A stretch of 64,000 bases of DNA from Pseudomonadota bacterium (GTDB taxonomy: Bacteria; Pseudomonadota; Gammaproteobacteria; Pseudomonadales; Ketobacteraceae): positions 187,862-251,861 of the forward strand of contig JAYZEN010000013.1 in assembly GCA_036337295.1 (NCBI GenBank), in the 5' to 3' direction. Position numbers and translations under genes: made by a program. Below the pieces are notes generated by a model. That model was not told where the DNA came from, did no database searches, and was given only the letters and a program-made list of their open reading frames with translations. Positions within the stretch are counted from its first letter, which is position 1. Every line of letters begins with the position of its first letter. This document shows positions 15,162 to 46,900 of the stretch, in pieces.

Positions 15162-15208
15162 CGTCGGCACAACACACTGATTTTCAAGCATTAAATTAGG
15201 ACGAAAAT

Positions 15209-15844
15209 ATGAAATTGGTAGCAAACGTGCTGGTCGCTGCTGCGCTGATGGCGAGCGCAGGCATCACCAACGCCGCTGGCGACGCCGAAGCCGGCAAAAA
15301 CAAATCCGCAGTCTGTGCCGCCTGTCATGGCGCTGACGGCAACAGTGCCATCCCCAACTTTCCCAAGCTGGCGGGCCAGGGCACTGCGTACACCGTGAAA
15401 CAGCTGCAGGACATGAAGAGCGGCGCCCGTTCCGTGCCGGAGATGGCCGGAATCGTACCGGGCCTGTCTGATCAGGATATGGCCGACCTGGCCGCCTACT
15501 TTGCAGCCCAAACGCCTTCCAAAGGCGCCGCCGACCCGGCACTGGTTGAGCGCGGCCAGCAATTGTTCCGTGGCGGCGATGCCGACAACGGCGTAACCGC
15601 CTGTGCCGGTTGCCATGGCGCCACTGGTCAAGGCATGCCGGAAGCCGGTTTCCCTGCCCTGGCCGGTCAACACGGCGCCTATCTGGAAGCCCAGTTGAAA
15701 GCCTTCCGTGCCGCCGGTCGTGAAGATCACGATGGCAAGCGTCGCGATAACGACGGCGAAGGCAAGATGATGCAGGCCACTGCGGCCCGCCTCAGCGACG
15801 ACGACATCAAGGCACTGGCCAGCTACATCAACGGCATGTACTGA
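15209..15844 (+). CDS. cytochrome c4 (diheme)
   Basis: Two CxxCH motifs (CAACHG, CAGCHG) and a signal peptide. The engB/cc4/dsbA neighbourhood is conserved. Confidence 0.85.
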   Translation: MKLVANVLVAAALMASAGITNAAGDAEAGKNKSAVCAACHGADGNSAIPNFPKLAGQGTAYTVKQLQDMKSGARSVPEMAGIVPGLSDQDMADLAAYFAAQTPSKGAADPALVERGQQLFRGGDADNGVTACAGCHGATGQGMPEAGFPALAGQHGAYLEAQLKAFRAAGREDHDGKRRDNDGEGKMMQATAARLSDDDIKALASYINGMY

Positions 15845-15872
15845 GCCCGCTGCACGGCGATGGTACCCAAAG

Positions 15873-15899
15873 AACCCCGGCCTGATCCGGGGTTTTTTG
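15873..15899 (+). terminator. rho-independent terminator after cytochrome c4
   Basis: AACCCCGGcctgatCCGGGGTT followed by TTTTTT. Confidence 0.7.
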
Positions 15900-16038
15900 T
15901 GCATGGCCGGGCACTTATCGCCATGATTGGATTCAGTTTCCATTCAGGTGGAACCCGCTAGCCTGAAAACAGTCAGACAATACAGTCACAGTCATACCAA
16001 GACCGCTAGGAACAACGATTCAGGAATTCAGGACGCTT

Positions 16039-16704
16039 ATGAACAACGCACTTTCCCTCAGAACCACACTGGTGGCCACCCTGGCCCTGTTCACCTCCCT
16101 TTTTACCTCCCTGCTCCAGGCGGAAACCTACCGTGAAGGCGTGGATTACGAACTGATCCAGCAACCCGGCAAGGTAGAGGTTCCCGGCAAAATCGAGGTG
16201 CGTGAGTTCTTCTCCTTCAGCTGCCCTCACTGCTTCAGCCTGGAAAGCTACACCGCCGAGTGGAAACCCACCCTGGCGGAGGATGTGAATTTTGTGATGA
16301 CCCCTGCGGCCATGCGCAAGGACTGGGAGCCCCTGGCCCATGCCTATTATGTTGCAGAGGCCCTGGGCAAGCTGGAACAGATCAAACCGGACCTGTTCAG
16401 CGCCATTCACGTGAAGAAGCAAAACCTGTACACCCAGGCAGAGCTGGCCGGGTTTTTCAAAGGCTACGGCGTCACTGAGGATGACTTCAACAAGCTCTTC
16501 AACTCCTTCAGTGTGCGGGTAAAAGTGCGCCAGGCCACCGCCCTGGCCAAGACCTACCGCCTGCGGGGCGTACCCGCCCTGGTGGTGAATGGCAAATACG
16601 TGGTCAAATCCCAGACTGGTAAAACCTTCGCTGACCTGCTGCAGGTGGTGAACTTCCTGGTGGACAAGGAGCGGGCTGCCTCCAAAGTAGCCGTTGCCCA
16701 ATAA
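16039..16704 (+). CDS. dsbA: thiol:disulfide interchange protein DsbA
   Basis: Signal peptide and CPHC active site (FSFSCPHCF). Thioredoxin-fold length is about 200 aa. Confidence 0.85.
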   Translation: MNNALSLRTTLVATLALFTSLFTSLLQAETYREGVDYELIQQPGKVEVPGKIEVREFFSFSCPHCFSLESYTAEWKPTLAEDVNFVMTPAAMRKDWEPLAHAYYVAEALGKLEQIKPDLFSAIHVKKQNLYTQAELAGFFKGYGVTEDDFNKLFNSFSVRVKVRQATALAKTYRLRGVPALVVNGKYVVKSQTGKTFADLLQVVNFLVDKERAASKVAVAQ

Positions 16705-16712
16705 GCATCCAG

Positions 16713-16740
16713 GCGGGAGCAAGCTGGCTCCCGCCTCTTC
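16713..16740 (+). terminator. putative terminator after dsbA
   Basis: GGCGGGAGC-N7-GCTCCCGCC hairpin followed by a T-rich tract. Confidence 0.5.
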
Positions 16741-16824
16741 ATTCCGCAATTGCGAACCCCATTCATAGAACAGCCACGCTTTAGCGCCTACAATAAATAT
16801 TCCAGGCACGTTGAGTGAGACCGC

Positions 16825-17667
16825 GTGAACTTCGACATCAGCACCCATAACCAGACCGGCTTCCAATCCACAGAACAACCCAGTGTGTTGCGTCTGCTGA
16901 GCTACAACATCCAGGCCGCCATCGGCACCAGCCAATTCCATCACTATGTGACCCGCAGCTGGCGTCATGTCTTACCGGACTGGCGTGGCCTGCAGCGGCT
17001 GGATCGCATCGGCCATGTGCTGGCCCACTATGACCTGGTGTGTCTGCAGGAAGTGGATGGTGGCAGCCTGCGCAGCGGCTTTGTGAACCAGGTTGCCTAT
17101 CTGGCGGAGCTGGGCCGTTTCGAATACTGGTACCAGCAGCTGAACCGCAACTTCGGCCGCCTGGGCCAGTTCAGCAACGGCGTGCTGTCGCGCTTTGTGC
17201 CCTATGAGATCGAAGATCACAAACTGCCCGGACTGAAAGGTCGCGGTGCCATCGTCGCCAAATACGGCAACGACAAGCACACCCTGGTGCTGGTGGGATT
17301 GCATCTGGCCCTCAGTGAACGCGCCCGGTTCCGGCAACTGGATTATGTGCGGGAGCTGATCGAGCACTATGAACACGTAGTGGTGATGGGGGACATGAAC
17401 TGCCGCAGCGAGCAGATCATCGACACCCCACTGCGGGATACCCACCTCAAACAAGTGAGCGGCGACCACCACACCTACCCCAGCTGGAACCCCACCCGCA
17501 ACATCGACCACATCCTGGTTTCCCCCAGCCTCAAGATCAACCACGTCAAGGTACTGGACTACGATTACTCCGACCACCGCCCCATCGCCATGGAAGTGGC
17601 GCTGCCGGAGACCCTGGCCGATGCCCTGGCGGAACAATCCCTGCTGCGCTCCACCTCCCCCAATTAA
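16825..17667 (+). CDS. endonuclease/exonuclease/phosphatase (EEP) family protein
   Basis: LLSYNIQ... (N-terminal catalytic Asn/Glu region), GDMN, and a C-terminal SDHRPI motif typical of the EEP fold. Confidence 0.7.
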   Translation: MNFDISTHNQTGFQSTEQPSVLRLLSYNIQAAIGTSQFHHYVTRSWRHVLPDWRGLQRLDRIGHVLAHYDLVCLQEVDGGSLRSGFVNQVAYLAELGRFEYWYQQLNRNFGRLGQFSNGVLSRFVPYEIEDHKLPGLKGRGAIVAKYGNDKHTLVLVGLHLALSERARFRQLDYVRELIEHYEHVVVMGDMNCRSEQIIDTPLRDTHLKQVSGDHHTYPSWNPTRNIDHILVSPSLKINHVKVLDYDYSDHRPIAMEVALPETLADALAEQSLLRSTSPN

Positions 17668-17762
17668 CGGAACTTTTCCTAATTTTTTTAAGTCGCCACT
17701 GGGAGAATCCCACAACTTTTCTATACTCTTTAAACAAAGAGAACGCAGAATTACCCGCGCCC

Positions 17763-19577
17763 ATGGCTGACAGTAATGCACTCAATTGGAAAGACAAATA
17801 CCTGACTGCGCTTGAGGAGTTTGAACTCAGCCAGCAGCGGGATCAGTCGCGCCTGGACCTATTGCGCCGCGGCCTGGTGCGGGTGAGCCTGGCGGCAGAC
17901 GGCCTGGACCCCATTCTGGACGAACAATTGGATGAGATCCGCACCGCCTTGCGCGGGGGCCGCGACATTCAATCCCTGGAGCCGGTGATCGCCCAGCTGG
18001 AACGCACCATCATGGCCCTGGACGACCGCCGGAAGGATGACCAGAGCGAGCTGCAGGAGCTGATCGACACTCAGCTGGAAAAATACCTCGCCCTGAGCCT
18101 GCCCCGGGCCGACAAAACCACCATCAAGAAATTACGCAAATCCCTGCCCGAGTTGCTGGCGGGCAACGGCATGCAGTCCGATATGATCAAAGGCCTCAAC
18201 CAGGCCCACAATCGCGTCACAGGTCACCTGTTGGAACGCATTGAAGAGTTGGGCCAGGGCCAGAAAGGCGGGCTGCTGTCCCGCCTGTTCGGCGCCTCCA
18301 ACCCGGAGAAATCTGCACACCTGGAGGCGGACGCTGACGGTGTTAGCGATTTGACCGAAACGCCGGATCTGGCCGCAGCGGATTACGATGCACGGCACCC
18401 GGATGAGCAGGAACTCGCGCCACCGCATCTGAATATCGAACCCGAAGCTGCACCCGCTACAGTGGCTGAGTCTGCACTGGAAATTGCCCCCGAAATAACA
18501 CCCGCGACCAACCCGGACAGCGCGGATCAAAGCGATCCCCAGCTACCGGACCGGCTGAGCCGAATCCTGTGCAACCTGCTGGAGCAGCTGGAAGTACCCA
18601 CTGACTTCACCACCCGCAAGGAACGGCTGGTGGACCGCATCAAATCCGCCTTCAGCCTCAACAGCCTGCCGGATTTTCTGGACGAAACCACTCAGCTGGT
18701 GGCCTCCACCCGCCTGGTGGCCCAGAAGGAATTCGAAGGTTTTCTGGTGGCCTTGCACCAGCGCCTGAACGACATCCAGGATTTTCTGGTGACCGCCCGG
18801 GAAGGGGAGGAACGCAGCCAGCAGAACCAGGAGAAACTGGATCAGGATGTGCGCCAGGAACTGGCGGACATGCGGCAGAACGTGGCCGACACCAACGACC
18901 TGGGCAAACTGAAACTGGACATTGAAAGCATGGTGAACCGCATTGTGTCCGCCGTGGACCTGTTTCAGTCGGAAGAACGCAAGCGCCGGGAAGACGTGTA
19001 CCAACACATCGAAACCCTGGGTCAACGCATGGCCACCATGGAAGACGAAGCCACCCAACTGAAGAGCACCCTGGAAGCGCAACGAATGGAAGCGTTAAGG
19101 GACGCGCTCACCGAACTGCCCAACCGGGCTGCCTACGATGATTGCATCGAAGCAGAGTTTTCACGCTGGCGCCGCCACGGTCGCCCGCTTTCCCTGGCCA
19201 TCATCGACGTGGATCATTTCAAAGCGGTGAACGACAACCTGGGGCATCTACGGGGTGACAAAGTATTGAAACTGGTGGCCCGGGAAATTTCCCGCCGGGT
19301 CCGCAATGAGGATTTTGTCGCCCGTTACGGTGGCGAGGAGTTCATTGTGATCATGCCGGAAACCGATCTGCACGCGGCCCACGCGGCCATGGAAAAAGTG
19401 CGAGCCTCCATTGAAGCCTGCCCCTTCAACTTCAACCAGAAGCGCATTCCCATTACCGCCTCGTTCGGCATCTCGGCCTTTGTGGAAGGGGATGAAATCG
19501 TCACCTGCTTCGAACGGGCCGACCAGGCACTCTACAAAGCCAAGGGAAACGGTCGAAACCGGATAGAACTGGGCTAG
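17763..19577 (+). CDS. diguanylate cyclase (GGDEF) with long N-terminal coiled-coil/acidic region
   Basis: C-terminal GGDEF domain with an RYGGEEF active site and an RxxD I-site-like region (ISRRVRNEDFV). The N-terminal ~430 aa are coiled-coil rich. Confidence 0.85.
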   Translation: MADSNALNWKDKYLTALEEFELSQQRDQSRLDLLRRGLVRVSLAADGLDPILDEQLDEIRTALRGGRDIQSLEPVIAQLERTIMALDDRRKDDQSELQELIDTQLEKYLALSLPRADKTTIKKLRKSLPELLAGNGMQSDMIKGLNQAHNRVTGHLLERIEELGQGQKGGLLSRLFGASNPEKSAHLEADADGVSDLTETPDLAAADYDARHPDEQELAPPHLNIEPEAAPATVAESALEIAPEITPATNPDSADQSDPQLPDRLSRILCNLLEQLEVPTDFTTRKERLVDRIKSAFSLNSLPDFLDETTQLVASTRLVAQKEFEGFLVALHQRLNDIQDFLVTAREGEERSQQNQEKLDQDVRQELADMRQNVADTNDLGKLKLDIESMVNRIVSAVDLFQSEERKRREDVYQHIETLGQRMATMEDEATQLKSTLEAQRMEALRDALTELPNRAAYDDCIEAEFSRWRRHGRPLSLAIIDVDHFKAVNDNLGHLRGDKVLKLVAREISRRVRNEDFVARYGGEEFIVIMPETDLHAAHAAMEKVRASIEACPFNFNQKRIPITASFGISAFVEGDEIVTCFERADQALYKAKGNGRNRIELG

Positions 19578-19718: not shown

Positions 19719-21098
19719 ATGACGACTCTACGCAGCTCCGCTTCGTTAACGTTATTGGACAAGGTCAACGTCTGTCTGCAGGACTTCGGGGACCATGTCA
19801 TGCATCTGATTTTTGATGTGCAGGGCGTTCTGCATCTGGAGCGCCTGCAACAGGCCCTGCGGCTCAGCCTGGAACAACATCCCATCATGGCCATGCGCCT
19901 GGAAGGTAGCGGGCTGCAGCCGAAATGGATTCGTCACACGCCTGCCACCCTGGCCCACTACGAATTTTGCGAGCACCACCTGCTTAACGGTGGCTCCGGC
20001 AATCATTCACTGCAGCACGCCATTGATGAATTCATGCTGCAGCAGTTTGATTATCAGCGTGTACCCATGGTGAAAGTGCGGGTCATTCAGCACGCGGCCC
20101 GTAACACCACATCACAAGATGCAACGCATACTATCTGCATTAAGGTCAGTTGTGTCCCCATCGATGGGAGGGGATTTTTGATTTATGTGGAGGATGTGCT
20201 CGCCCTGTATGAAAAACTGGAGCTGAACCCTTCCTTCCACCCGCAGCCCGGCACACTGAATCTGCGCAGCACCAAAGCACTGGTGCCGTATTTTCGCCCC
20301 CGGGATCTGTTGCCCCTGTTGTTCCATGGGCTCAAACATCAACTGCAGGACAGTCGCACCGCCCACAACTGGCAGGTGCCCTGCGTACCCGACAGCGCCA
20401 TTCACAAACGTTATCTTTGCCATCAGTGTTCACCGCGCACCCTGCAGGCACTGACCCGCTTTCGGCGACAGCAAGGGTTGAGTTTCAATGATGTATTGCT
20501 GGGTGCCTATTACCTGGCACTGCATGAACAGATTCAACCTGAGCACCAGGGCCCGTTCTGTGTGCTGAACACCTATGACCTGCGCCGGTACGAAACGGAC
20601 AAAGCTCCCCACCGAGTGGCCAATTATTCCAGCTTTATCAATACCAATGTGTCGCTCTCCGCGGGCAGCACCTTGTTGCAGGCCGCCCGCGCCGTACAGG
20701 ATGCCATCCACCAGCGCAAACAGCATTACCCCGGTATTACCGAAGGCCCCTTTATCTGGCCCTTGTTGACCTTTCTGCCGTTCGGCCTGGGCAGTCGCAT
20801 CGTGAAATTCCTGCTCAAGCATCGGGGCGAGAAAATCCCCGTGTTCACCAACGTGGGCGTGATCCCGGTGGAACGCATGCGGTTCAACGGCATGCCGATC
20901 CGCAACGTGCGACCCTTTGCACCATTGGAATACCCACCCAAACTAACGGTGACACTGGCCACCGCCGGCGAGGTCATCAGCCTGAGCGTGGGCTACAGCA
21001 ACCGCCATTTTGCCACCGACAACATGCAGCGCCTGTTCACGCGCATGGAACAACTGATTCAGGCCACCTGCACCCAAACGGTAACCGAGGCGGCGTGA
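19719..21098 (+). CDS. condensation-domain-like acyltransferase (PapA / WS-DGAT superfamily-like), putative
   Basis: 459 aa, the size of a stand-alone condensation domain. It carries an HHxxxDG-like box, EHHLLNGGSG. First gene of a co-directional lipid cluster. This is a motif-level call only. Confidence 0.45.
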   Translation: MTTLRSSASLTLLDKVNVCLQDFGDHVMHLIFDVQGVLHLERLQQALRLSLEQHPIMAMRLEGSGLQPKWIRHTPATLAHYEFCEHHLLNGGSGNHSLQHAIDEFMLQQFDYQRVPMVKVRVIQHAARNTTSQDATHTICIKVSCVPIDGRGFLIYVEDVLALYEKLELNPSFHPQPGTLNLRSTKALVPYFRPRDLLPLLFHGLKHQLQDSRTAHNWQVPCVPDSAIHKRYLCHQCSPRTLQALTRFRRQQGLSFNDVLLGAYYLALHEQIQPEHQGPFCVLNTYDLRRYETDKAPHRVANYSSFINTNVSLSAGSTLLQAARAVQDAIHQRKQHYPGITEGPFIWPLLTFLPFGLGSRIVKFLLKHRGEKIPVFTNVGVIPVERMRFNGMPIRNVRPFAPLEYPPKLTVTLATAGEVISLSVGYSNRHFATDNMQRLFTRMEQLIQATCTQTVTEAA

Positions 21099-21102
21099 GC
21101 AC

Positions 21103-23445
21103 ATGATTGAGCATCTGGTTCGACGGCGCTGGTGGTATTGTGTGGGCACCTTTCTGGTGATGGTGCTGCTTTCCAGTCAACTGCTGCATATGGTGTTCAA
21201 CGGCAACGTGAACGTCATGTTTGATGAAGACGATCCCCATTACCAGCGTCTGCAGCAACTGAATCAACAATACATCGACTCCAATTATCTGGTGCTGCTG
21301 TTCAAACCTGCACGAGGCAGCGTGTTTGACAATGACAACCTGCACATCATCCGTGAGTTGACCGAAGCCCTGTGGCAACTGCCTCACGTAGTCCGGGTGG
21401 ATTCCCTCACCAACTTTCCCCGCCTGCAGGTGGAGGGGGATTCCCTTATAGTGGCCAACCTTGTCCCTGAATCATCCCCCTCTGCGCCCTTAAGCCAGGG
21501 CCAACTGGACGCTATTCAACGCTACGCGCAAGAGGATCAACAGTTACATGGGCGCCTGGTGTCCCCGGATGGACAGGCCGGTGCTCTGTTTGCCAGCGTG
21601 GTGTTGCCGGAGGATCACCTGACTTCGGTTTTGGAATTGAGCCGCCATGCCTTGGCACTGCAACGGGATTTTGAGCAGCGTTACCCGGGCCTGGAGCTGC
21701 ACCTGAACGGCGACATCGCCATCGAAAACGCCATGCTGCAGGTGACCATGGACGACATACTGCGGGTGAATCCGTTGGTGTTCGCCACCATCTTCATCCT
21801 GCTGGGAATATTTCTGCGTTCGGTGATGGCCATCGCCGCCACCGGTGCCGTGGTGATCGCCGCCACCGGCATTGCCAGTAGCATTCATGTGTTGCTGGGA
21901 TTTGAAATGAATCCCATCACCATGATGGCGCCGGCCATCATCATGATCCTCGCCGTGGCAGACAGCATCCACGTACTCACCCTGTTTCGCATTCTGTGTG
22001 GCAACGGTACTGCACCCCTGCAGGCCATGACCCAAAGCCTGCGTAAAAACCTGAGCCCGGTGTTCTGGACCAGCGTGACCACGGCGGTGGGATTCCTCGG
22101 CATGAACTTTGGTGATTCGCCACCATTTCGCACCATGGGCAACATGGCTGCCATCGGTGTGGTGTTTGCGTTTGTCTGCACCTTCACGGTATTGCCGGCG
22201 GTGGCCCTGCAATTCGGCAATCGGTTCCAGGATCAACCGTTCAGCCTCACCCGCTGGATGGAACAACTCGCTCGTTGGGTCATCGCCTCCGGGCGCGCCA
22301 CGTCAGTGATGGTGGTCGCGTTGTTGGGTTCCCTGGCGTTGTTGCTGTGCATTCCCAATATGAAATTGAACGACGACATCTCGGAGTATTTCGACGAATC
22401 CCTGCCGATTTATGATTCCATCCAGTTTGCCCGCCAGCACACCAACGGCGTGCAGTTTATTGTTTATTCCATGGAATCCGGCCAGCCCAACGGCATCTAT
22501 CAACCAGCTTTTTTGAACGCGGTGGAGGCCTTCACCGATTGGTTGCGGCAACAGCCCGACGTGAGTGCCGTGACCAGTTATCTGGATGTATTGAAACGCA
22601 TTCACCGCACCATGAACCAGGATCAGCCGGAGTTTTATGCCATTCCCGATGATGCCGCCCTGATTGCCCAATACCAGCTGCTGTATGAGATGTCCCTGCC
22701 CCAGGGCATGGACCTGACCCACGACATTGCAGAGGATCATTCCGCTCTGAAACTCTCCGTCAACGTGCGCGACAGCGACAACCAGACCCTGATGAACCTG
22801 GAACAACAGATTGACGATTGGCTCGCCCAACATCAACCGGCGTTGCGCAGCCAGGGCAGCAGCCAGTTGCTGATGTTTGCTCACATGGGTTCGAACATCA
22901 TCCGTAGCATGGTGGATGGCTCCCTCTTCACCCTGGCCTTCATCACCCTGTTTATGATCGTCGGCCTGCGTTCATTCAAGTTCGGTCTGCTGAGTATTAT
23001 TCCCAATCTTTTCCCGGCCATCGTGGTGTATGGCATCTGGTCTCTCACGGTGGGGCACGTCAATCACGCGGCGGCCATGACCTTCAGCATCTGCCTGGGG
23101 CTGGTGGTGGACGACACCATTCATTTCATCAGCAAATATCTGTCCGCCCGCCGCCAGGGCCGCTCACCCCAGCAGGCCATTCACGACAGCTTCATTCAAT
23201 CCGGTACCGCCATCGTCATCACCTCGGTGATTCTGATCTGCGGTGTGCTGTTGCTGTCTCTATCGAATTTTACGGTGAACGACACCATGAGCCTGATGCT
23301 GGCGGGCATCATCTCCACTGCCTTGCTGTTCGACCTGCTGTTGTTACCCAGCCTATTGCTGTTTGCAGACCGCTTTGCGGTGGAACCCGATACCCGCATT
23401 GAACCTGATACCAGTTTTAAACCCGAATCCCACGTCAACACCTGA
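21103..23445 (+). CDS. RND-superfamily MMPL-type lipid exporter
   Basis: 780 aa. Two repeats, each with an N-terminal TM, a large periplasmic loop and a 5-TM bundle (e.g. VMAIAATGAVVIAATGIASS..., IIPNLFPAIVVYGIWSL...). Architecture matches COG1033/HpnN/MmpL exporters. Starts 4 nt after the upstream gene. Confidence 0.75.
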   Translation: MIEHLVRRRWWYCVGTFLVMVLLSSQLLHMVFNGNVNVMFDEDDPHYQRLQQLNQQYIDSNYLVLLFKPARGSVFDNDNLHIIRELTEALWQLPHVVRVDSLTNFPRLQVEGDSLIVANLVPESSPSAPLSQGQLDAIQRYAQEDQQLHGRLVSPDGQAGALFASVVLPEDHLTSVLELSRHALALQRDFEQRYPGLELHLNGDIAIENAMLQVTMDDILRVNPLVFATIFILLGIFLRSVMAIAATGAVVIAATGIASSIHVLLGFEMNPITMMAPAIIMILAVADSIHVLTLFRILCGNGTAPLQAMTQSLRKNLSPVFWTSVTTAVGFLGMNFGDSPPFRTMGNMAAIGVVFAFVCTFTVLPAVALQFGNRFQDQPFSLTRWMEQLARWVIASGRATSVMVVALLGSLALLLCIPNMKLNDDISEYFDESLPIYDSIQFARQHTNGVQFIVYSMESGQPNGIYQPAFLNAVEAFTDWLRQQPDVSAVTSYLDVLKRIHRTMNQDQPEFYAIPDDAALIAQYQLLYEMSLPQGMDLTHDIAEDHSALKLSVNVRDSDNQTLMNLEQQIDDWLAQHQPALRSQGSSQLLMFAHMGSNIIRSMVDGSLFTLAFITLFMIVGLRSFKFGLLSIIPNLFPAIVVYGIWSLTVGHVNHAAAMTFSICLGLVVDDTIHFISKYLSARRQGRSPQQAIHDSFIQSGTAIVITSVILICGVLLLSLSNFTVNDTMSLMLAGIISTALLFDLLLLPSLLLFADRFAVEPDTRIEPDTSFKPESHVNT

Positions 23446-23466
23446 CTGTTACCTGGAGTAAACACA

Positions 23467-24501
23467 ATGACCATGACACGATTCGAAAGTATAGGGGTGT
23501 ATCTTCCGGAACAGGAAGTCACCACCCGTGAACTGATTGACAGCATGGACACCGAACCCATGTTCGATCTGGAAAAGCTCACCGGCGTGAAAAGCCGTCG
23601 CTGGCGGGCACCCCATGAAGACTGTCACAGCCTGGCGCTGGAAGCCATCGAACGCTGCCTGGTGAACTCCCGCTATGAAGCCGACGAAATCGACGTGATC
23701 ATCTGCACCTCAATCACCCGTTTTAAAGACGGGCTCAAGTTTGTGTTGGAACCCTGCCTGAGCAGTTACCTGAAAAAACGCCTGGGCATGAGGGAAGATG
23801 CCTTGAATTTTGACATCACCAACGCCTGTGCCGGCATGTTCACCGGCGTACACGTGCTGGACCAGATGATCAAAAGCGGCGTGGTGCGCAACGGCCTCAT
23901 TGTCAGTGGTGAGTGCATTACCCCCATTTCCGAAACCGCATTGAAAGAAATCAACAACCCGGTGGATGAACAGTTCGCCTCCCTCACCGTGGGGGATTCC
24001 GGGGCCGCTGTATTGATGGATCAGTCCCCCAGCGACGACGAAGGGGTGGAGTTTCTGGAGTTGCTGACCTTGTCGCAGTTCTCGGACTTTTGTTACGGCA
24101 TGCCCAGCGATAAAAACCCCGGCGTGGCCATGTACACCAAGGCCATGGAAATTCACGCCACGGTGATTCAACGCCTGCCGCAAACACTGGGCCATTTTGC
24201 CGAGAAATACCAGGTCAGCGGCGCGGACTTTGCGCACGTGATTCCACATCAGACTTCCGAGCGCGCCATCCGCTCCGCCCTGGCCCTGTGCAGCGAATCC
24301 CTGGGCGACATTCCCAACATTTGCGTGTCGCTGGACCGCTACGGCAACACCTCTTCCACCTCGCACTTTGTGGTGCTCAACGACCACATCCAACAGGGCC
24401 ACATCCAGCCCGGGCAACGCATCCTGATGCTGGTGCTGGCCTCGGGTATTGTGTTGGGCGTGGCCTCCGTTCGCATCGGCAACCTGACAGGAGCACACTG
24501 A
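23467..24501 (+). CDS. FabH/OleA-like beta-ketoacyl synthase III (thiolase-fold condensing enzyme)
   Basis: Catalytic Cys in DITNACAGMF, His in VIPHQTSERA, Asn in DRYGNTSSTS: a complete Cys-His-Asn triad. 344 aa. Confidence 0.8.
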   Translation: MTMTRFESIGVYLPEQEVTTRELIDSMDTEPMFDLEKLTGVKSRRWRAPHEDCHSLALEAIERCLVNSRYEADEIDVIICTSITRFKDGLKFVLEPCLSSYLKKRLGMREDALNFDITNACAGMFTGVHVLDQMIKSGVVRNGLIVSGECITPISETALKEINNPVDEQFASLTVGDSGAAVLMDQSPSDDEGVEFLELLTLSQFSDFCYGMPSDKNPGVAMYTKAMEIHATVIQRLPQTLGHFAEKYQVSGADFAHVIPHQTSERAIRSALALCSESLGDIPNICVSLDRYGNTSSTSHFVVLNDHIQQGHIQPGQRILMLVLASGIVLGVASVRIGNLTGAH

Positions 24502-24502
24502 T

Positions 24503-25408
24503 ATGGGCAGCATGATCAAAGCCACCGCACTGGTCACCGACAACGGCTTCAGCGCCATCGACAACGCCACCCGCGCCGGACTGGACTGCCTGCAACAGGC
24601 CGGCATTCAGCCGCAACAGGTGGGCCTGCTGATCAACGCCGGGGTGTACCGGGACGACAACATCATGGAACCCAGCATCGCCAGTTTGATTCAACGGCAC
24701 ATGAACATGGGATTGGATTTTGCGGCAGACAGCCCCAACCAGGTCACCTTCTCGTTCGACGTGGTGAACGGCGCCTGCGGCTTTTTGAACGCGGTGACCA
24801 TCGCCGATGCCTTCCTGCGCAATGGCAGCGTGGAATACGCACTCATCGTGTGCGGCGACGCCCACCCTTCCAAAACCGACCACCCGGAGTTTCCCTACGT
24901 GGCGGTGGGAGCGGCCGCCCTGCTCCACCTTTCCACCGCTGCCGCCGACGCCAACAAGGGCTTTGGCCCGTTCGCCTACCGCAGCAACGAATCCGACTGC
25001 CTTTCCCACATCAGCACCTATGGCGACCTGGCCCAATTCGGCGACCAGGGCCGCGCCCAGGGCCAGTTCCAATTCAGCAATCAATATGTGGAGGAATTCC
25101 GCCGCTTGAACGTGACCCTCATCAACGAGTTTTTAGCACAGCATGAGCAGCCCCGGGTGGACTTTTTGTTGGGATCGGATCTGGAAGCGGGCTATTGCAA
25201 CAGCGTGTGCGCCAGCAGCGATTTAAAACGCCAGCCCACCAGAGCCATGGAATTGTTCGAACATTTCAACGGCGACCCCCACACCGCAGCCCCCATCGCC
25301 GCCTTTCACCAACTGCAGCGGGAAGTGGCCAACCCCAGCGGACTGTCGCTGTTATTCCACGCGGTGGGCTCCGGCGACGCCAGTGCCTGCGCACTGTATC
25401 GCTCATGA
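24503..25408 (+). CDS. KAS III-like paralogue, probably catalytically impaired partner subunit
   Basis: Clear FabH homology (GLLINAGV..., DVVNGACGF, LLFHAVGSGDA). No HQ(A/T)N His motif was found. Starts 1 nt after the upstream KAS III stop. Confidence 0.6.
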   Translation: MGSMIKATALVTDNGFSAIDNATRAGLDCLQQAGIQPQQVGLLINAGVYRDDNIMEPSIASLIQRHMNMGLDFAADSPNQVTFSFDVVNGACGFLNAVTIADAFLRNGSVEYALIVCGDAHPSKTDHPEFPYVAVGAAALLHLSTAAADANKGFGPFAYRSNESDCLSHISTYGDLAQFGDQGRAQGQFQFSNQYVEEFRRLNVTLINEFLAQHEQPRVDFLLGSDLEAGYCNSVCASSDLKRQPTRAMELFEHFNGDPHTAAPIAAFHQLQREVANPSGLSLLFHAVGSGDASACALYRS

Positions 25409-26409
25409 CGGGCAACGCACTGGTCACCGGCGGCGGCGGCTTTCTCGGCCGCTACATTGCCGAACAACTGCAACAAAGGGGTTATCAGGTCACGGTGTTT
25501 TGCCGTGGCCACTACCCGGACCTGGAACAAGCCGGAATACACGTGCAGCGAGGCGATGTGACCAACCCCATCCAACTGGAGAATGCCATCGCCGGGCAGG
25601 ACCTGGTGTTTCACGTGGCCGCCAAAGTGGGCTATTGGGGGGACTACCAGGATTACTACGCGGTGAACGTGCAAGGCACCGATCACGTCATCCGCGCCTG
25701 TCGCCAACAGGGCGTAAAAAAACTCATCTACACCAGCTCCCCTAGCGTCACCATGAACAACATCGACATTCACGGCGGCGACGAACAACTTCCCTACCCC
25801 AAGCACTACCACTCCCACTACTCCGCCACCAAAGCCATCGCCGAACGCAAAGTACTGGCCGCCCACAACCCCCGCGGCCTGCACACCGTCGCCATTCGCC
25901 CCCACCTGATCCTGGGCCCCCGGGACAACCACCTGCTGCCCCGCATACTGCAAAAAGCCCACAGCGGCCGCCTCAAACAGATCGGCCCCGGCCGCAACAA
26001 AGTGAGCGTCACCTATGTGGAAAACGCCGCCCACGCCCACATCCTGGCCGCCGAATCCCCCAACACCGGCGGCAACGCCTACTTCATCAACGAACCGGAC
26101 CCCATTCTGCTCTGGCCCTGGTTAAAGCAGATCCTAGAGAAGTTGGATGCTCCGCCCCCCAGATACCGCGTTCCATTCGCCCTGGCTTTTGCCGCCGGTT
26201 GGGTGCTGGAAAACCTGTACCGCGCCTTGCGTGTAAAACAGGAACCACTGGTGACCCGCTTTATTGCCTCGGAGCTGTACCGCAATCACTACTTTTCCAT
26301 CGACAAGGCGCGCCGCGATTTTGGCTATGAGCCGCTGTACAGCTTTACGCAAGCGGAGGCGAAGACGTTGGAGTATGTGCGGGGGGAGCTGGGGTTGGGT
26401 GGGGAGTAG
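25405..26409 (+). CDS. 3beta-hydroxysteroid-dehydrogenase/NAD-dependent epimerase family reductase (OleD-like)
   Basis: Rossmann motif LVTGGGGFLGRYI and YxxxK (YSATK). Its ATG at 25405 overlaps the upstream stop (ATGA). 334 aa. The longer ORF from 25195 is not supported. Confidence 0.75.
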   Translation: MTGNALVTGGGGFLGRYIAEQLQQRGYQVTVFCRGHYPDLEQAGIHVQRGDVTNPIQLENAIAGQDLVFHVAAKVGYWGDYQDYYAVNVQGTDHVIRACRQQGVKKLIYTSSPSVTMNNIDIHGGDEQLPYPKHYHSHYSATKAIAERKVLAAHNPRGLHTVAIRPHLILGPRDNHLLPRILQKAHSGRLKQIGPGRNKVSVTYVENAAHAHILAAESPNTGGNAYFINEPDPILLWPWLKQILEKLDAPPPRYRVPFALAFAAGWVLENLYRALRVKQEPLVTRFIASELYRNHYFSIDKARRDFGYEPLYSFTQAEAKTLEYVRGELGLGGE

Positions 26410-26763
26410 GCTTTATTGTTGGGTATTTTTTGTTCTGGTTGTTTCTTGATGGTTAATTCGTGCGGGTTAGTTTTCTGTATTCGTTATTAATATAGCGGGT
26501 TGACGACTTTGTCATACTGCGGTCAAATGGCTGTGGGGTGACTGTATTTGGACAGGCGATTTTTGAGGCCTGCTGGATATGGTGGATTTTTAGTGATTGA
26601 TGTTTAACGGGCTGATATGAGTTCTTCGTGAATCTGTGCAAGTGGATGGAAGTGGGTGCTTCCTTGATGTATTTGCTTGGTTAGGTGTGCGGAGGACGTA
26701 GATATGAATGTTATGGCTAAACCGGCTTTGCATCTACCAAAAGGGTGTTAAAGGAAGATTAAA

Positions 26764-27717
26764 ATGCAAAACATGAAAAAATACTTTGGGTTTGAAGTGA
26801 AGGTCTCTAATTTTCTTCACCCAGAAGATTTCTCTATCATTAAGGATAGGCTCGTTAGTTTTGCTAATTCAGAAGGTTTGGATCTTGATCAGTATCGTGT
26901 ATATCTTCATCAGCTCGTAATCTTAGCAAATGAATCACATTTTGGATTGGGCGGTGGTTTGCCCGCCAGGGTTGAAAATGTGTTATTAAAATTTTCGGTC
27001 AACTACAAACAAAAAAGAGATGGAGATATTATTTTTAAAAATAATCTTCTTGAAGAAATGGAAGGAGTTAAATCGTATACCCTTCCTCATGAAATTTGCT
27101 ACACAATTCCTCCCAGCTATTTTCTTGAAAAGCAACAATTTCAGAATGCAATTGTAACGTTTGTCAGTAAATCCCTTCGTCGCGAAGATTTCAAAAAAAT
27201 AAAAGTCTGTGTTTCAGCCAACGCTACTGCAGCATTTAGGCCGCTTATACAAAGCAATCTTGCGGCGGAATCAATAACTAATCTGGATCTTCCTTTAAAT
27301 AAGGGAGTGGATTTTGACAGCGAAATAACATTAAAGCTTCAAGGAAAATTAGGAGAGGTTAAAATGCCAGGAGATGATTCAAAAACAACTAATATCTTTA
27401 ACATTCAACAAGCGGGAGCAGTATCCGCATCGGGAGAAATAACGACTAATAATAATCTGAACCAACAGCAGCAAGGAATTCCCTTTGACCATGTCATCAA
27501 GGAAATGAAGCACCTTCAAACCCTGCTTGATAAGGAAGGACTTCCTGAGCCAAGAAAAAAGGAAGTGGAGGCACTAACAGATGCAATTCAATTGGCTGAT
27601 TCAAAAAGTGAATTTATACCAAAGCTAAAAGAGGCTGGTAGCTGGCTAGCTGATAAAGCCGAAAAAGTAGGCGTCTCTCTAGTAGCGGCGGCTATAAAAG
27701 GTCAGCTAGGTTTGTAA
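26764..27717 (+). CDS. hypothetical protein (317 aa), cassette 1
   Basis: AT-rich ORF with Lys/Asn-rich composition. No recognisable domain. Its stop lies 5 nt before an attC-like element. Confidence 0.55.
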   Translation: MQNMKKYFGFEVKVSNFLHPEDFSIIKDRLVSFANSEGLDLDQYRVYLHQLVILANESHFGLGGGLPARVENVLLKFSVNYKQKRDGDIIFKNNLLEEMEGVKSYTLPHEICYTIPPSYFLEKQQFQNAIVTFVSKSLRREDFKKIKVCVSANATAAFRPLIQSNLAAESITNLDLPLNKGVDFDSEITLKLQGKLGEVKMPGDDSKTTNIFNIQQAGAVSASGEITTNNNLNQQQQGIPFDHVIKEMKHLQTLLDKEGLPEPRKKEVEALTDAIQLADSKSEFIPKLKEAGSWLADKAEKVGVSLVAAAIKGQLGL

Positions 27718-27722
27718 TCAAG

Positions 27723-27836
27723 GCCATAACAAGTTGCAGCACGCGGAGCCAGTTACGCCGCACCAATATGTGGTCGCTCCGCTCTTTACCACATATTGTC
27801 ACGTCGCAACTGGTCCGGTGTGCAAGGCGTTAGAAC
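27723..27836 (+). repeat. attC-like recombination site 1 (114 bp)
   Basis: Begins GCCATAAC (exact complement of GTTATGGC at 26710-26717) and ends GTTAGAAC. Internal inverted repeats GCGGAGC/GCTCCGC and CCAATATGTGGT/ACCACATATTGT. Confidence 0.5.
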
Positions 27837-27902
27837 TTAGATCAGCTATTACCAAATCCGAATTATTGAAGTAATCATTCGTCAGCAATTTAAGGGGGGG
27901 CT

Positions 27903-28406
27903 ATGGATGAATTCCGGCTTGTAATTGAAATAATATCGTTATCTCTATTGGCGGGATCAGTTTTTTACGCGGCTCGCCAAATAAAAAGCAGCCATGATTG
28001 GAATCGTAGAAAAGCTGCACAAGATATAGCAATTAAATATGCTGAACTTAACCCGAATAAGGTTGTAATTAATGAATTTTTGGAACGCATAGGCCATAAA
28101 GAGGCGCTAAAACTAGAAGAATTAAAGGACGAATTTAAAAGGGCTAGCGATCTCAGAGATGCTATCGATACGCTTCTTAATTTCTACGAGTTCTTGGCAA
28201 TGGGCGTGGCGCAAAAAGTATATGATGAGAAACTTATTAGAATATTTTGGGGCGAAGCCATGAGTACGAATAGAATTCGATATAAATCGTATATTGATAA
28301 CTCTATTAAGGAAGAATACCCAGACCTGTGGAGATATTTTATATCCTACACAGCAAAGTGGGATTCACAAAAAAATCAAATTCAAGAGCGAGGCTCAACT
28401 GGGTAA
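27903..28406 (+). CDS. hypothetical membrane-anchored protein (167 aa), cassette 2
   Basis: N-terminal TM helix LVIEIISLSLLAGSVFYAA. No known domain. Confidence 0.5.
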   Translation: MDEFRLVIEIISLSLLAGSVFYAARQIKSSHDWNRRKAAQDIAIKYAELNPNKVVINEFLERIGHKEALKLEELKDEFKRASDLRDAIDTLLNFYEFLAMGVAQKVYDEKLIRIFWGEAMSTNRIRYKSYIDNSIKEEYPDLWRYFISYTAKWDSQKNQIQERGSTG

Positions 28407-28420
28407 ATTTTGTTCGTCAA

Positions 28421-28475
28421 ATTCTAACAATTTGGTGCAGTGGAGCCAGTTACGCTCCGCAAAATTAGTTATTAA
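28421..28475 (+). repeat. attC-like recombination site 2 (about 55 bp)
   Basis: Begins aTTCTAAC (complement of GTTAGAA, which ends site 1). Internal GGAGCcagttacGCTCC hairpin, shared with site 1 (GGAGCCAGTTACGC). Ends GTTATTAA. Confidence 0.45.
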
Positions 28476-28497
28476 TTCCCTCAAGGAGAAAGGAATA

Positions 28498-29664
28498 ATG
28501 AAAGCATACCTATTCGCATTCTGTATTTTGGCGTCCTTGAGTGGATGCGCATCATTTACTCATTACACAAAGGAAACCGATTTGAAGAATTCCAAGGCGG
28601 TTTTTGTGGATGCGAAGCAAAGAGGGATCTACAAGTTTCAAGTAAAAGACCCGCAAGGAAACGTGACTTGGGAGGGAGTTTGTGCGGAGCCATCACCTGA
28701 TGCAGTATCAGCTCTAGCAGCAACTTTAGGTGTTGATCTTTCAATAAATGATAAGGGTCAATTTGGGTTGTCTCAAGCGATATCCGAAGGTGTTAGTAGT
28801 ATCGGCCTCAGAACTGCGGCCATTGAAGCACTGCGGGATATTATGTATCGAAACTGCGAAGCTTATGCTTTAGGCGGAGTATCTAGCATGGGATTGGAGA
28901 CACTCCAAAGAAGATTTCAAAGCACTATGGTAGCGATCTTAGCAATAGAGCAATTGACGGGCGCTGTTCGTCCTCCCGCCACTATTATAGTTAGCAACTC
29001 AAAAGCAGGTGATGCTGATGCGATCGTTGACCTAACTAATAAAACTGAAACAGCGCGAAAATCTCTAGTAGATGCAAAAGAAATCGAAGAAAAAGCCAAA
29101 TCCGAGTTTGATTCGGCAACCACAAAGCAGAGCGACTCCGGGAAAAAAGTAGGGGATGGAAAAGCTGAGTATGACCGCATAAAAGCACTCGCCACTCAAA
29201 CAGATGAAGAAAAGAAAAAAGTTGCTGAGTATCAGGCCCTATTAAAAGAAGACGACGCCAACAAGAAAGCTACAGAAGAAAAGAAGAAAGAATATGACAC
29301 AGCTCAAGCGACCACCAAGGAGCGAGACCAAGCGCTTAAAGCTCTGGACGCATCAAGAGTTGCCGCTCTAACTGGAGGAGGGAGCTCTGGTAATGCCGGA
29401 GAAATTGAAAAAATTGCCCCTCGAACTGCTTTATCCGACGCGGCTGTTAAAGATATAGCGCTCGCTGTTACAAAAATCGTAGAGACAACGGTAAGCCTAA
29501 ATTACACATCCGAGGTTTGTACGACGTTAGTGGGACAGCATCCAGAGATAAAACCGGAGTACGGGTCACCAACATGGGCTTGTACAGTTTTGTTGACATC
29601 CCAGGACAAAAGCCCGAGTGCTATTCAGCAGCAGTTGTTTAATATTTTAAGTAAGCCGGAGTAG
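28498..29664 (+). CDS. lipoprotein with central Lys/Glu-rich coiled-coil (388 aa), cassette 3
   Basis: Lipobox LASLSGC after a signal peptide. RBS AAGGA. Central KKKVAEYQALLKEDDANKKATEEKKKEYD coiled-coil. Cys-containing C-terminal domain. Confidence 0.6.
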   Translation: MKAYLFAFCILASLSGCASFTHYTKETDLKNSKAVFVDAKQRGIYKFQVKDPQGNVTWEGVCAEPSPDAVSALAATLGVDLSINDKGQFGLSQAISEGVSSIGLRTAAIEALRDIMYRNCEAYALGGVSSMGLETLQRRFQSTMVAILAIEQLTGAVRPPATIIVSNSKAGDADAIVDLTNKTETARKSLVDAKEIEEKAKSEFDSATTKQSDSGKKVGDGKAEYDRIKALATQTDEEKKKVAEYQALLKEDDANKKATEEKKKEYDTAQATTKERDQALKALDASRVAALTGGGSSGNAGEIEKIAPRTALSDAAVKDIALAVTKIVETTVSLNYTSEVCTTLVGQHPEIKPEYGSPTWACTVLLTSQDKSPSAIQQQLFNILSKPE

Positions 29665-29672
29665 ACAGGTAT

Positions 29673-29700
29673 GCCTAACAAGCCAATGCACGCGGAGCAA
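29673..29700 (+). repeat. truncated attC-like site 3 (canonical inverse core GCCTAAC)
   Basis: GCCTAACAAGCCAATGCACGCGGAGC matches the 5' half of site 1 (GCCATAACAAGTTGCAGCACGCGGAGC). It lacks the 3' arm. Confidence 0.4.
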
Positions 29701-29728
29701 AAAAAATCAGATTCTTCCCGGTGAGCTA

Positions 29729-29971
29729 ATGAAGAAGATAGGCTGGTTTATAGTAGGATTTATCGCTTCTACTTTCCTCTTTTTCTGCGCGGTCTATCTG
29801 CTCGGTTGGGCAACGGAGTACCTGGGCTTTCCTCTTTACGAATCGGAATCAGATCAGCAACGGAACTTCAATATAGTTCTTGTGGGTTGGCTTTTAGTTG
29901 CAACGGTATCTGGGTTCCTCACCACAAGAATAAAAACCGGCATGTCCACCCCCAATCACTCTCAGAGATAA
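29729..29971 (+). CDS. small two-TM membrane protein (80 aa), possible cassette 4
   Basis: Two hydrophobic helices. The ORF runs from AT-rich DNA into the high-GC flank, so its 3' end is uncertain. Confidence 0.3.
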   Translation: MKKIGWFIVGFIASTFLFFCAVYLLGWATEYLGFPLYESESDQQRNFNIVLVGWLLVATVSGFLTTRIKTGMSTPNHSQR

Positions 29972-29985
29972 GCACACCGGCACCA

Positions 29986-43986: not shown

Positions 43987-46900
43987 TCAGGCAACTTCAT
44001 CATTGATCATACCGACCACAGGACTCTCAATCAGACCGTCGTCCGTCAGATAGCGCATCGGTACGACTGTGTTGGGGGTGGGTTTATAGGCCCAAAACAA
44101 TTCAATATCCTCCTGGGCGTCGAACTCCACCAATACATTCGTAAAACCATCCCGCTCTTCAAACCTGGCGGCTTCTATAGCTTCGCCTAACTTGGCCGTC
44201 AACGCCTTATTCTCCCGCCACACACCGGCACTGAAAACATTAAAATCAATATGACGAGTACGTACCTCATACATAATATCGGACACACCGATCTGAAATC
44301 TGGGCAACGAGAACTTTAATGAGAACGTTCTAGTATCACCGGAGGTATCAAACCAACCCTCTGTATCCGAAAGTTCCAGCGTTGGCATGTTCAGGTAGTT
44401 CATAAACTCCTGTAATTCAACTTTGTACGCAGACAGCACCATCGGATTACTCGCCATCTCTTTGGCATCTTCAATACGGTCTGCAACGTCAGGCCGGTCG
44501 TCCTCGAATTCCCAAAACCCATATTTACTGCTCACACCCCAGAAGCAATTTTCCAACAACCGCTGGAAATCCGACTTCCCATATATCCACAGCAGTGCCG
44601 CACCTGTCCCCATACACAATAACCCGACCACTATTACAACCAGGCCGGGGGGAGCCCCGACCCCAGTCGCAGTGGCACCGCCACCGGCAGCCGCTGCGGC
44701 CGCGCCTACACCTTGGAGAGTGGCCAGTATAATGGCAATAGAACCCACTGCCAGCACAAAGTGCCCAGCCGCTTCACCTCGATTGTCGCCCTGCCAGGAG
44801 TTGATGCCGTTCCAGACCGAAGCAGTAGCCGAGGCAAAATTTGCTACCACGATGACACGGGAAAACAGCTGTGACTTCAACAAGGTGCCCAGCACCGAGG
44901 CTCGATCACTCAGTTTCGGTGCCAGGGAGGCGATTACCTGATTGGATGCCTGCGCTGAAGCACTTGCCGAGACGCCCACCGCAGCTCGGCTGATGGTCAA
45001 CACATCCACCGTCAACGACGTCACGGCGGAGGCGAATTGAATCAGGCCATGCACAGTATGCCCCCGCTGCAAAGGGTCATTATCGTAATAGTCCGCCTGC
45101 AAATACAAGTCATAGATCACGCGGCAGTTGGCGTAAGCGGATAAACCCGCAAAGCCGGACTCTGCCGCCACCCCAATACCCTCACCCACACTTTTCGGCA
45201 CCACAAAAGAGAATCGCTTTCCAGGCAGGCGGGTAATCTCGATTTCTGACAGTTCCACATAACGGGGTATGGTGGTCTTTTTGGTTTTTTGTCCCCAATC
45301 AAACATCTTCTGGGCACGGGACAGTGCCTTTTCTGCCGCCTTTAATACATCATCCCCTGCTGTCCCCGGGTAAGACCGGGCGGACGCTTCAATCTGCTCC
45401 GCCAGAATCTGCCCCAACTTCTCCGGCGTATACCGTACTCGATTGGCATTATCCACCGTTATGCCCATAGCCTTGTGCACATAGGGAATGACCTGATTGA
45501 CGGTGTACTTGTAAACATTGGCCAGAAAGCGATTCTTGGCCCGCACCGACACCTGTGCCTCATAAATGGAGAACACTGCAATTTTGGCCCACAGCGGGCC
45601 CAGTTGCTGCAGCAGTTTATCCATTGGGACGCCCACCTTGGCCGCCCAATCTACGGTGTCCTGCGGTGCAGTCACTATGCCTTTGAACACACCAAAAAAC
45701 GCCACATAGGCATTCTTGTCGTTGTTGAAGTCTTCAAGTATTTTTTCTATAACGGAATTGCCCCGGTCAGAGGACAGTATTCCATTGAAAATACCCGCAC
45801 CAATCTCACACAGTTTGGCCAACTCCGCGGTTGCTTCATCCCCTTTCGCGGTATCCTGACAAAAGAATTTCTGGAAATAGTTGTCCAGAGAACCGACCTT
45901 ACCGGTCACCCCCGCGCCGTGCATGAACGCACGATAGAGTTCCACAAACTGTTCCTGTCGGGCCGCAAAGTCCTTGAACTCCTGATCAATTCCAGCCCAG
46001 TATTGATCGTAATCCCCCCAATTTATCGATTCCTTCAGTACATCCTGCAGCGCTTCATCGTTGGATTGTTTCAGCTGCCCCACTAGCTGCCCAATGGTAA
46101 ATGGATAAAGATTCTGCGATGCATAGGCCTTCTCCCACAGCGCCAACTTGGCGTGCACCTCGGCAATGTCTCTTTGTCTGCCGACCGGATCATGCAATGC
46201 CACCACGCGGGCGGTTTCACCCGGTTTGGTTTTGCGTCTCAGCGCCAGTGCAATCTGGTCCGCATCCATGTCGTAGCTGGACTGAGTCGTCAGCACGTCG
46301 AGCGCCAGGTCTTTCACACTGGGATCTGTACTGCTGTTTTTTATCCGTAACAGGCGCGCCTTCTGTTCCCGATAATCCTCAACCAGGCGCGCCAGATTCT
46401 CCGCAGTGGCCGGCACCGCCGCCGGATCGTCGCTCTTAAGCTTGATCCTTTGCATGGACGCAGCCCGCTCACCCGCATCTCCGTTCATTTTATCGATGAT
46501 ATCGGGATGCCACTCGTGCTCACTATACGCAATACTGATTTCAGTGACCTCCTTGCGCACAAAAACGAAGGGATAGCCTCCTTTGACGCCCCCCGATGTA
46601 TCCTCTTTAAGACCACCCTGGGCATTCACTCCATTAGCGAACTGGTATTTTGGAAAACGCTCTTCCAGCTGCCCGTTATTCTCCACCGGTGCATATTTAA
46701 AGATCTGGAAGTGGCCGCCGTTCGGGCCATCTTCTTCCCGTATATAAATCCAACCAGGTCGCAACAATCTTGGCACATAGCCGTTGGTACTGTTCAGGTC
46801 TGCCGCATCCAGCATGGCCGAGAGTGGAGGTGGTTCCGTTGGCGCGAGCAACGACTCCTCAAAGAAGTTTGCATAGGCGTAGCGCACCGGATAGATCGGG

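Follow-up and report, generated by a model that had tools for sequence, protein, structure and literature searches.

A tandem pair of KAS III-type genes in a Ketobacter-type operon as a most likely split OleA heterodimer of the LstAB/NltAB type

The window analysed in this work is a stretch of 64,000 nucleotides (nt) from a bacterium of the Ketobacteraceae (assembly GCA_036337295.1, contig JAYZEN010000013.1), and its subject is the pair of tandem genes at positions 23467-25408, whose products have the fold of 3-oxoacyl-acyl carrier protein (ACP) synthase III (KAS III) and are called here subunits A and B. It is most likely that this pair is a "split OleA" heterodimer for the head-to-head joining of two fatty acyl chains, a reaction known from LstAB (lipstatin, Streptomyces toxytricini) and NltAB (nocardiolactone, Nocardia brasiliensis). 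As a whole, the data are best explained by an obligate 1:1 A:B heterodimer of ~70 kDa with a single active site, working through the steps proposed below, and we would give this reading a probability of about three in four. The adjacency of the A and B genes, their repeated fusion and an invariant glutamate in B place the pair in the LstAB/NltAB family and not beside PqsBC of Pseudomonas aeruginosa, as whose possible analogue it had been viewed in a first-pass annotation made from the sequence alone. The two genes and the residues discussed are the following (aa, amino acids):

23467-24501, plus strand: subunit A, catalytic KAS III/OleA-like thiolase, 344 aa, with Pfam, NCBIfam and PDB matches
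23749-23751, plus strand: Glu95 of A, the OleA-type Glu
23827-23829, plus strand: Cys121 of A, in ITNACAGMF
24247-24249, plus strand: His261 of A, in IPHQTS
24346-24348, plus strand: Asn294 of A, in YGNTSS
24503-25408, plus strand: subunit B, truncated triad-less KAS III-fold partner of the LstB/NltB type, 301 aa
24668-24670, plus strand: Glu56 of B, invariant
24773-24775, plus strand: Ala91 of B, in the nucleophile column
24776-24778, plus strand: Cys92 of B, off register, one residue past the nucleophile column

The genes for A and B are closely linked wherever the family was found. A scan with one genome per species detected relatives of B in at least 530 species genomes, and the best 80 loci, on which the counts below are based, include Ketobacter and its relatives, Streptomyces, Nocardia, Rhodococcus, Kitasatospora, Smithella/Syntrophaceae, Spirochaetes and Oleispira. 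An A-type gene lies directly upstream of B on the same strand in 79 of these 80 loci, the exception being a 2-kb contig that starts at B, and the loci with this adjacency span Actinobacteria, Desulfobacterota, Spirochaetes and Gammaproteobacteria. The start of B is found at -17 to +24 nt from the stop of A in 78 of the 80 pairs, the commonest spacing being 1-3 nt. Moreover, an exhaustive profile search (E <= 1e-30) yielded 590 representatives of the B family at 50% identity; the best 150 include 64 proteins of more than 500 aa with a C-terminal B domain, which in 61 cases is directly preceded by an A-like domain sharing 33-41% identity with A. Conserved tight coupling together with repeated fusion in the same order is classic evidence that both polypeptides act as one unit. 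In some of these proteins (P0091, P0094, P0100, P0118 and P0130) the domains are part of larger enzymes: the fused A-B didomain occurs at the C-terminal end of nonribosomal peptide synthetase (NRPS) modules, in the arrangements C-A-T-[A-B], C-T-[A-B] and T-[A-B], and in one protein a WS/DGAT acyltransferase is joined to a B-type domain.

At the sequence level, the proteins of the window are 95-100% identical to those of a Ketobacter sp. metagenome-assembled genome (MAG; locus L001). B is 33-38% identical to the B genes of Nocardia, Streptomyces and other loci (E 1e-40 to 1e-53; for those of Nocardia and Streptomyces alone, E 1e-40 to 1e-49), and for A the identities to its counterparts in the Nocardia, Streptomyces, Spirochaete and Smithella loci range from 39 to 60%. 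In place of the reference LstB and NltB sequences, we used those of Nocardia loci whose genes are in the order nltABCD. Residue conservation was counted in 81 B-family sequences from the 80 loci and in 79 A-family sequences.

In the window, a single base separates the stop codon of A (TGA, 24499-24501) from the ATG of B, which is preceded by AGGAG at ~9 nt. This gap had been noted in the first-pass annotation, which also took the second gene for a homologue of the first, and the coordinates, the BLASTP and profile alignments and the predicted fold agree with it on both points. BLASTP aligned the N-terminal third of B only (22% identity over 95 aa, E 4e-8). A B-family profile built from 25 proteins and run against solved structures matched FabH over its full length (E 8e-26), and the AlphaFold2 model of B (pLDDT 86.5, pTM 0.89) superposed on FabH, OleA, PqsD and BioZ with TM scores of 0.7-0.8. 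Taken together, these three results indicate that the homology of A and B is real and extends over the full length. The best single-sequence match of B among solved structures is the OleA of Xanthomonas (E 6e-11), and in the OleA and FabH alignments B starts at about FabH residue 35-60; some 35-55 residues of the FabH N terminus are missing from it.

Subunit B had been described as keeping a Cys box, VNGACGF, while missing the His of the HQxN motif. The string is indeed present, but its cysteine does not occupy the position of the nucleophile: in all three alignments (BLASTP, OleA and FabH profile) Ala91 is the residue of B that pairs with the catalytic Cys of A, OleA or FabH, and the flanks FD... 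and ...GF are in register around the box. The nucleophile column of the 81 sequences holds Ala in 71, Ser in three, Pro, Glu and Gly in two each and Asp in one, and Cys in none. Cys92 is found in 62 of them, the other 19 having Val, Gly, Asn, Ile or Ala, and the NltB-like proteins of Nocardia read NGAVGV at the position of the box. Since Cys92 is off register and not conserved, a B enzyme with a retained nucleophile can be ruled out. The absence of the His was correctly seen, its column being occupied by Ser225, and the alignments show no intact Asn either, Asp258 standing in that column. Thus, as read from these alignments, the entire Cys/His/Asn triad is lost in B, and not the His alone. Two further features of the family concern the former active site: a near-invariant His260 (78 of 81 sequences, motif GDPHT) lies two residues past the former Asn column, and Ser occupies the former His column in 61 of 81. 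We found no published role for either of them in this family.

What B does retain is a glutamate. The pair Glu56-Pro57 is invariant in all 81 B-family sequences, and Glu56 aligns with Glu117 of the OleA "LEPS" motif. In the NltB-like proteins of Nocardia the Glu is residue 57, as in NltB itself, and in the window it is residue 56. In OleA, Glu117 of the partner chain enters the active site of the other chain and is the base for a non-decarboxylative Claisen condensation (bioRxiv 10.1101/856955). In lipstatin synthesis, LstA carries C128/H271/N305 and the substitution E60A in LstB abolishes the activity of LstAB (PMC12141560; bioRxiv 10.1101/856955). NltA and NltB are active only if co-expressed and elute at ~72 kDa, and for NltB, which is truncated and has no triad, Glu57 has been proposed as the base (bioRxiv 10.1101/856955). 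By analogy, B would be expected to supply the catalytic base and not merely to set specificity, the role suggested for such a pair in the earlier annotation.

Subunit A has the complementary set of residues. It matches the Pfam families ACP_syn_III (E 8.5e-11) and ACP_syn_III_C (E 1.9e-14), and the NACAG, HQTS and GNTSS motifs, in which the first-pass annotation had located the catalytic Cys, His and Asn, do contain them, as Cys121, His261 and Asn294. All three are kept in 79 of 79 A-family sequences, as is Pro96, and Glu95 is kept in 75. The spacing from Glu to Cys is 26 residues in A, as in OleA (E117/C143), whose tetrad is E117/C143/H285/N315 (PMC9486936). Judging from these motifs, A has the Glu, Cys, His and Asn tetrad of condensing subunits of the OleA/LstA/NltA type. 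In the structure-match alignment, Glu95 occupies the column of Phe87 of FabH, and A does not reach the FabH cut-offs, with 119.8 against 292.1 bits for TIGR00747 and 143.1 against 249 bits for NF006829. From family and context only, we infer that A would carry out a non-decarboxylative condensation of two long acyl thioesters. In an A:B dimer, Glu95 of A would point at the dead pocket of B.

The A-B pair lies at the centre of a tightly packed operon of five genes (19719-26409), the other members of which are:

19719-21098, plus strand: stand-alone condensation-fold protein, 459 aa, first gene of the operon (Pfam Condensation, PapA_C, WS_DGAT_C)
21103-23445, plus strand: MMPL/RND (HAE3-like) inner-membrane transporter, 780 aa (Pfam MMPL, E 1.1e-32)
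25405-26409, plus strand: OleD/NltD-like extended short-chain dehydrogenase/reductase (3-beta-HSD family), 334 aa (Pfam 3Beta_HSD, E 9e-54)

The transporter gene starts 4 nt past the stop of the condensation-fold gene, and the ATG of the reductase gene overlaps the stop of B as ATGA. A scan for promoters and terminators gave nothing above background. The whole cassette recurs at 47-98% identity in L001, in four further Ketobacter-clade or Pseudomonadales genomes (L002-L005) and on a metagenome contig (L082), and a homologue of the reductase is found in most A-B loci. The motifs TGGGGFLG and YSATK of the reductase are intact, and its best curated models are the two NCBIfam equivalogs for OleD, 2-alkyl-3-oxoalkanoate reductase (357.6 and 340.3 bits, E 6e-107 and 1e-101). 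The transporter scored below the cut-offs of all the NCBIfam models compared (HAE3, actII-MMPL and HpnN-like), and the nearest solved structures to it are mycobacterial MmpL4 and MmpL5 (E 1e-10).

The first gene of the operon encodes an atypical protein. The AlphaFold2 model of this product (pLDDT 85.7) has a C-domain fold, and the best TM scores were obtained with the dehydratase AzeD, the acetyltransferase TRI3, cyclization (Cy) domains and PapA5. Where the active-site motif HHxxxDG is expected the protein has SCxxxDG, and in the profile comparison with the PDB "kvsCvpiDGrg" aligned to "iiHHlvvDGiS" of NRPS epimerization and condensation domains. Thus, it shares the fold of NRPS condensation domains, PapA5 and WS/DGAT enzymes, and the HHxxxDG motif with its catalytic second His, a feature of these proteins, was not found in it. 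The family is small (35 clusters), and in 19 of 19 members Cys145, the Cys of SCxxxDG, is kept without exception, as are Asp149 and Gly150.

With these genes the following route can be proposed. A fatty acyl thioester would acylate Cys121 of A, His261 and Asn294 acting as the usual thiolase machinery, and Glu56 of B would cross the pseudo-twofold interface into the active site of A and take the alpha-proton. The head-to-head condensation would give a 2-alkyl-3-keto acid, which the translationally coupled OleD-like reductase would convert to the 2-alkyl-3-hydroxy acid; all the steps up to this point are drawn from homology to characterised systems. The gene content points to a further stage of tailoring and export, in which the condensation-fold protein would handle the hydroxy acid, by acyl transfer or dehydration, and the MMPL transporter would release the product as a surface or extracellular lipid. 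The Ketobacter-type context thus suggests an exported 2-alkyl-3-hydroxy, mycolate-like lipid.

The genes that would lead to an olefin or a beta-lactone were also sought. With tblastn and four OleC-like proteins as queries, nothing like OleC turned up in the 64-kb window or in L001-L005; the OleB-OleC fusion query gave one weak match in L004, to its hydrolase part only. An OleC-like AMP-binding gene accompanies the pair in 66 of the 80 loci. This tally counts loci with any OleC-like gene, because open reading frames (ORFs) of more than 750 aa had been labelled "OleBC fusion" automatically, a label that cannot be trusted in actinobacterial loci of high GC content, where calling of the longest ORF over-extends. 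In the actinobacterial (nlt/lst-like) loci the OleC-like gene fills the gap between B and the reductase; the Nocardia order, A, B, AMP-binding gene, reductase, is that of nltABCD, and among these loci the AMP-binding gene was verified with Pfam in the Nocardia locus L028 only. The Spirochaete locus has A and B, then a fusion of hydrolase and AMP-binding domains (OleB-OleC), then the reductase. As the cassette of the window has neither an OleC-type synthetase nor OleB, its pathway probably ends in neither a lactone nor an olefin.

The loci with such fusions deserve a separate description. In the Spirochaete MAG (L008, 8873-14557) the fusion is encoded by an 878-aa gene, an alpha/beta-hydrolase joined to an AMP-binding domain, and is the only one verified with Pfam. 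In the Smithella MAG (L010, 6924-14515) two tandem A-B pairs are followed by an 865-aa gene, likely a fusion by its length, and then by the reductase. L008 and L010 would be olefin-type clusters based on a split OleA.

Several observations weigh against the heterodimer and the route proposed for it. The best structure matches of A are with E. coli FabH (E ~1e-24), OleA following with E 7e-15, and A alone has all four catalytic residues, its own Glu95 included, with which a homodimeric A is compatible. The reductase stays below the 580-bit equivalog cut-off of both OleD models. One homologue of the condensation-fold protein was found without the cassette (L081), and the lack of the catalytic His weakens any assignment of acyl transfer, dehydration or mere binding to this protein and, with it, the prediction of the end product. 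Finally, as the OleC search covered the 64-kb window, an OleC gene could lie elsewhere in the genome.

The residues and structure matches of A bear on the strongest of the alternatives, according to which A alone would be a homodimeric enzyme similar to OleA or FabH, and B an accessory protein, such as a regulator, a chaperone or a substrate-delivery factor. As A has the full Glu/Cys/His/Asn set, the active sites of an A2 dimer might in principle be complete without B, and the FabH structures that match A best are homodimers. Nevertheless, we regard this alternative as improbable. The LstA and NltA homologues, with the Glu likewise kept (75 of 79 in the A family), need the B partner for solubility or activity. 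Moreover, A-B fusions are frequent and constant in order, the scores of A are far under the curated FabH cut-offs, and the conservation of B, its confident fold and its invariant Glu-Pro argue against a merely accessory role.

Less probable still is a heterodimer built strictly like PqsBC, the analogue suggested in the earlier annotation; in this reading B would be a pure scaffold shaping the pocket and the specificity while A joined an acyl-CoA to a beta-keto acid or another non-fatty substrate. Part of that annotation stands: an obligate pairing of an active with a defective subunit is strongly, if indirectly, supported by the adjacency in 79 of 80 loci, the short spacing and the fusions in 61 of 64 long proteins. 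There is also a true likeness, since both PqsBC and A-B pair an active with a triad-less FabH-like subunit in imitation of the FabH homodimer, with pseudo-twofold symmetry in PqsBC (PMC4807248); the loss of Cys, His and Asn in B is as expected for a scaffold like PqsB, and A matches PqsD (E 7.5e-16) and, weakly, PqsC (E 3e-7). What fails is PqsBC as the model. PqsC has a Cys129/His269 dyad and Val299 where the Asn would be, PqsB serves as a scaffold and has no catalytic residues, and the substrates are octanoyl-CoA and 2-aminobenzoylacetate (PMC4807248), whereas here A has Asn294 and Glu95, and B has Glu56. PqsB was not among the 34 single-sequence PDB matches of B (E up to 1), nor among the best 60 of the 100 chains matched by the B-family profile, which were the ones inspected; the best single-sequence match was OleA. 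In addition, the neighbourhood of the pair showed no genes of anthranilate or pqsA/D/E type, the neighbouring gene encodes an OleD-like reductase, and the order here, active then inactive, is the reverse of pqsB-pqsC. Given Asn294 and Glu95 in A, the invariant Glu56 in B, the lack of detected similarity to PqsB and the reversed order, PqsBC is the wrong analogue.

That B is a decaying, functionless duplicate left by a tandem duplication of A, as its lost triad and truncated N terminus might suggest, is effectively refuted by the wide conservation of the family (590 representatives, at least 530 species), its invariant residues and the confident fold of B, and the identity of only 22% between A and B indicates that the duplication is ancient.

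The surroundings of the operon offer some observations of their own. Directly upstream lies a gene for a GGDEF diguanylate cyclase with a DGC-associated coil (17763-19577, plus strand), which keeps this position in L001-L003 and not in L004 or L005. Three consecutive ORFs of 250, 320 and 269 aa (15191-17781, minus strand), without any Pfam or NCBIfam match, separate it from an EngB-like GTPase gene. Directly after the operon the GC content falls to 0.43-0.44, from ~0.58, over a stretch at ~26700-30550, which contains ORFs without Pfam match, a DUF4760 protein (27903-28406) and an HNH endonuclease (29986-30543, minus strand), and which looks like a horizontally acquired islet. Further on are the gene for the sigma-54 activator RtcR (minus strand), divergent from that of the RNA ligase RtcB (31118-34231), and a type VI secretion effector pair (43987-49996, minus strand) made up of a VgrG spike and, after it, a protein of 1002 aa whose N-terminal domain is that of a VasX toxin. 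On the metagenome contig L082, a gene for a FadL/TodX-type outer-membrane channel for hydrophobic compounds (2074-3735) lies directly upstream of the cassette; the FadL/TodX-type gene of the window (58146-59756, minus strand) is ~32 kb away from it.

Placing the pair in the LstAB/NltAB family corrects a misannotation: the source annotations name both genes "FabH" or "3-oxoacyl-ACP synthase III", and PqsBC is a tempting comparison. The survey of loci also shows the split-OleA design to be widespread, in at least 530 species, often fused, and joined to several downstream chemistries. We found no relevant literature on an OleA/MMPL cluster or on lipid genes of Ketobacter. We propose, as a tentative and still rather doubtful possibility, that the cassette is an undescribed proteobacterial pathway with which the alkane-degrading Ketobacter and its relatives make and export a corynomycolate-like 2-alkyl-3-hydroxy lipid, as a surface lipid or biosurfactant comparable to the mycolate-containing lipids of Rhodococcus and Corynebacterium, and that the invariant Cys of the condensation-fold protein performs a chemistry new for this fold, for example by taking the thioester-bound product from A. 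If true, such a mycolate-like lipid, exported by a Gram-negative degrader of hydrocarbons, would add a new class of lipids to these bacteria, and the operon would offer a compact path to hydroxy fatty acids that are long and branched.

Among known systems, the mycolate and corynomycolate pathway resembles the proposed one in its succession of condensation by Pks13, reduction by CmrA and export by MmpL3, and mycobacteria also have PapA5 and MmpL7. However, the condensing enzyme of mycolate synthesis is a type I polyketide synthase, unrelated to the KAS III heterodimer described here, and the condensation-fold protein of the operon does not have the catalytic His of PapA5. Closer in enzymology is OleA of Xanthomonas campestris (olefin pathway oleABCD), which has in common with the pair the fold, the Glu/Cys/His/Asn tetrad, a Glu that acts in trans from the partner chain, as is proposed for B, and an OleD-like reductase in the pathway. 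The OleA homodimer has two active sites; in the window two diverged genes would share the roles between them, and OleB and OleC are absent. The closest relatives outside Ketobacter are the split-OleA olefin-type clusters of Spirochaete, Smithella and Syntrophaceae genomes (L006, L008, L010 and L034), with the same A-B coupling and with A 46-60% and the reductase 46-51% identical to those of the window; in contrast to the window, they have the hydrolase and AMP-binding fusion between B and the reductase (Pfam-verified in L008), and neither the condensation-fold gene nor the MMPL gene.

The best match for the pair as a whole is LstAB/NltAB. A and the reductase are only 32-47% identical to their actinobacterial counterparts, and the cassette differs from the Lst and Nlt systems in having no beta-lactone synthetase of the LstC/NltC type, no NRPS and no formyltransferase, in having an MMPL transporter and a condensation-fold protein with a His-to-Cys change, and in its host, a gammaproteobacterium (Ketobacter). 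In both, nevertheless, the catalytic gene comes first and the triad-less one second, an OleD-like reductase belongs to the operon, and a Cys/His/Asn subunit is paired with a truncated, triad-less partner carrying an essential Glu (E60 in LstB, E57 in NltB), which here would be E56. Even the divergence of the subunits is similar, with ~22% identity between A and B and 23% between LstA and LstB. The enzymology of the A-B pair is therefore probably not new, the pair being a further member of the LstAB/NltAB family; what is new is an operon that has no lactone synthetase and combines such a pair with an exporter and an atypical condensation-fold protein.

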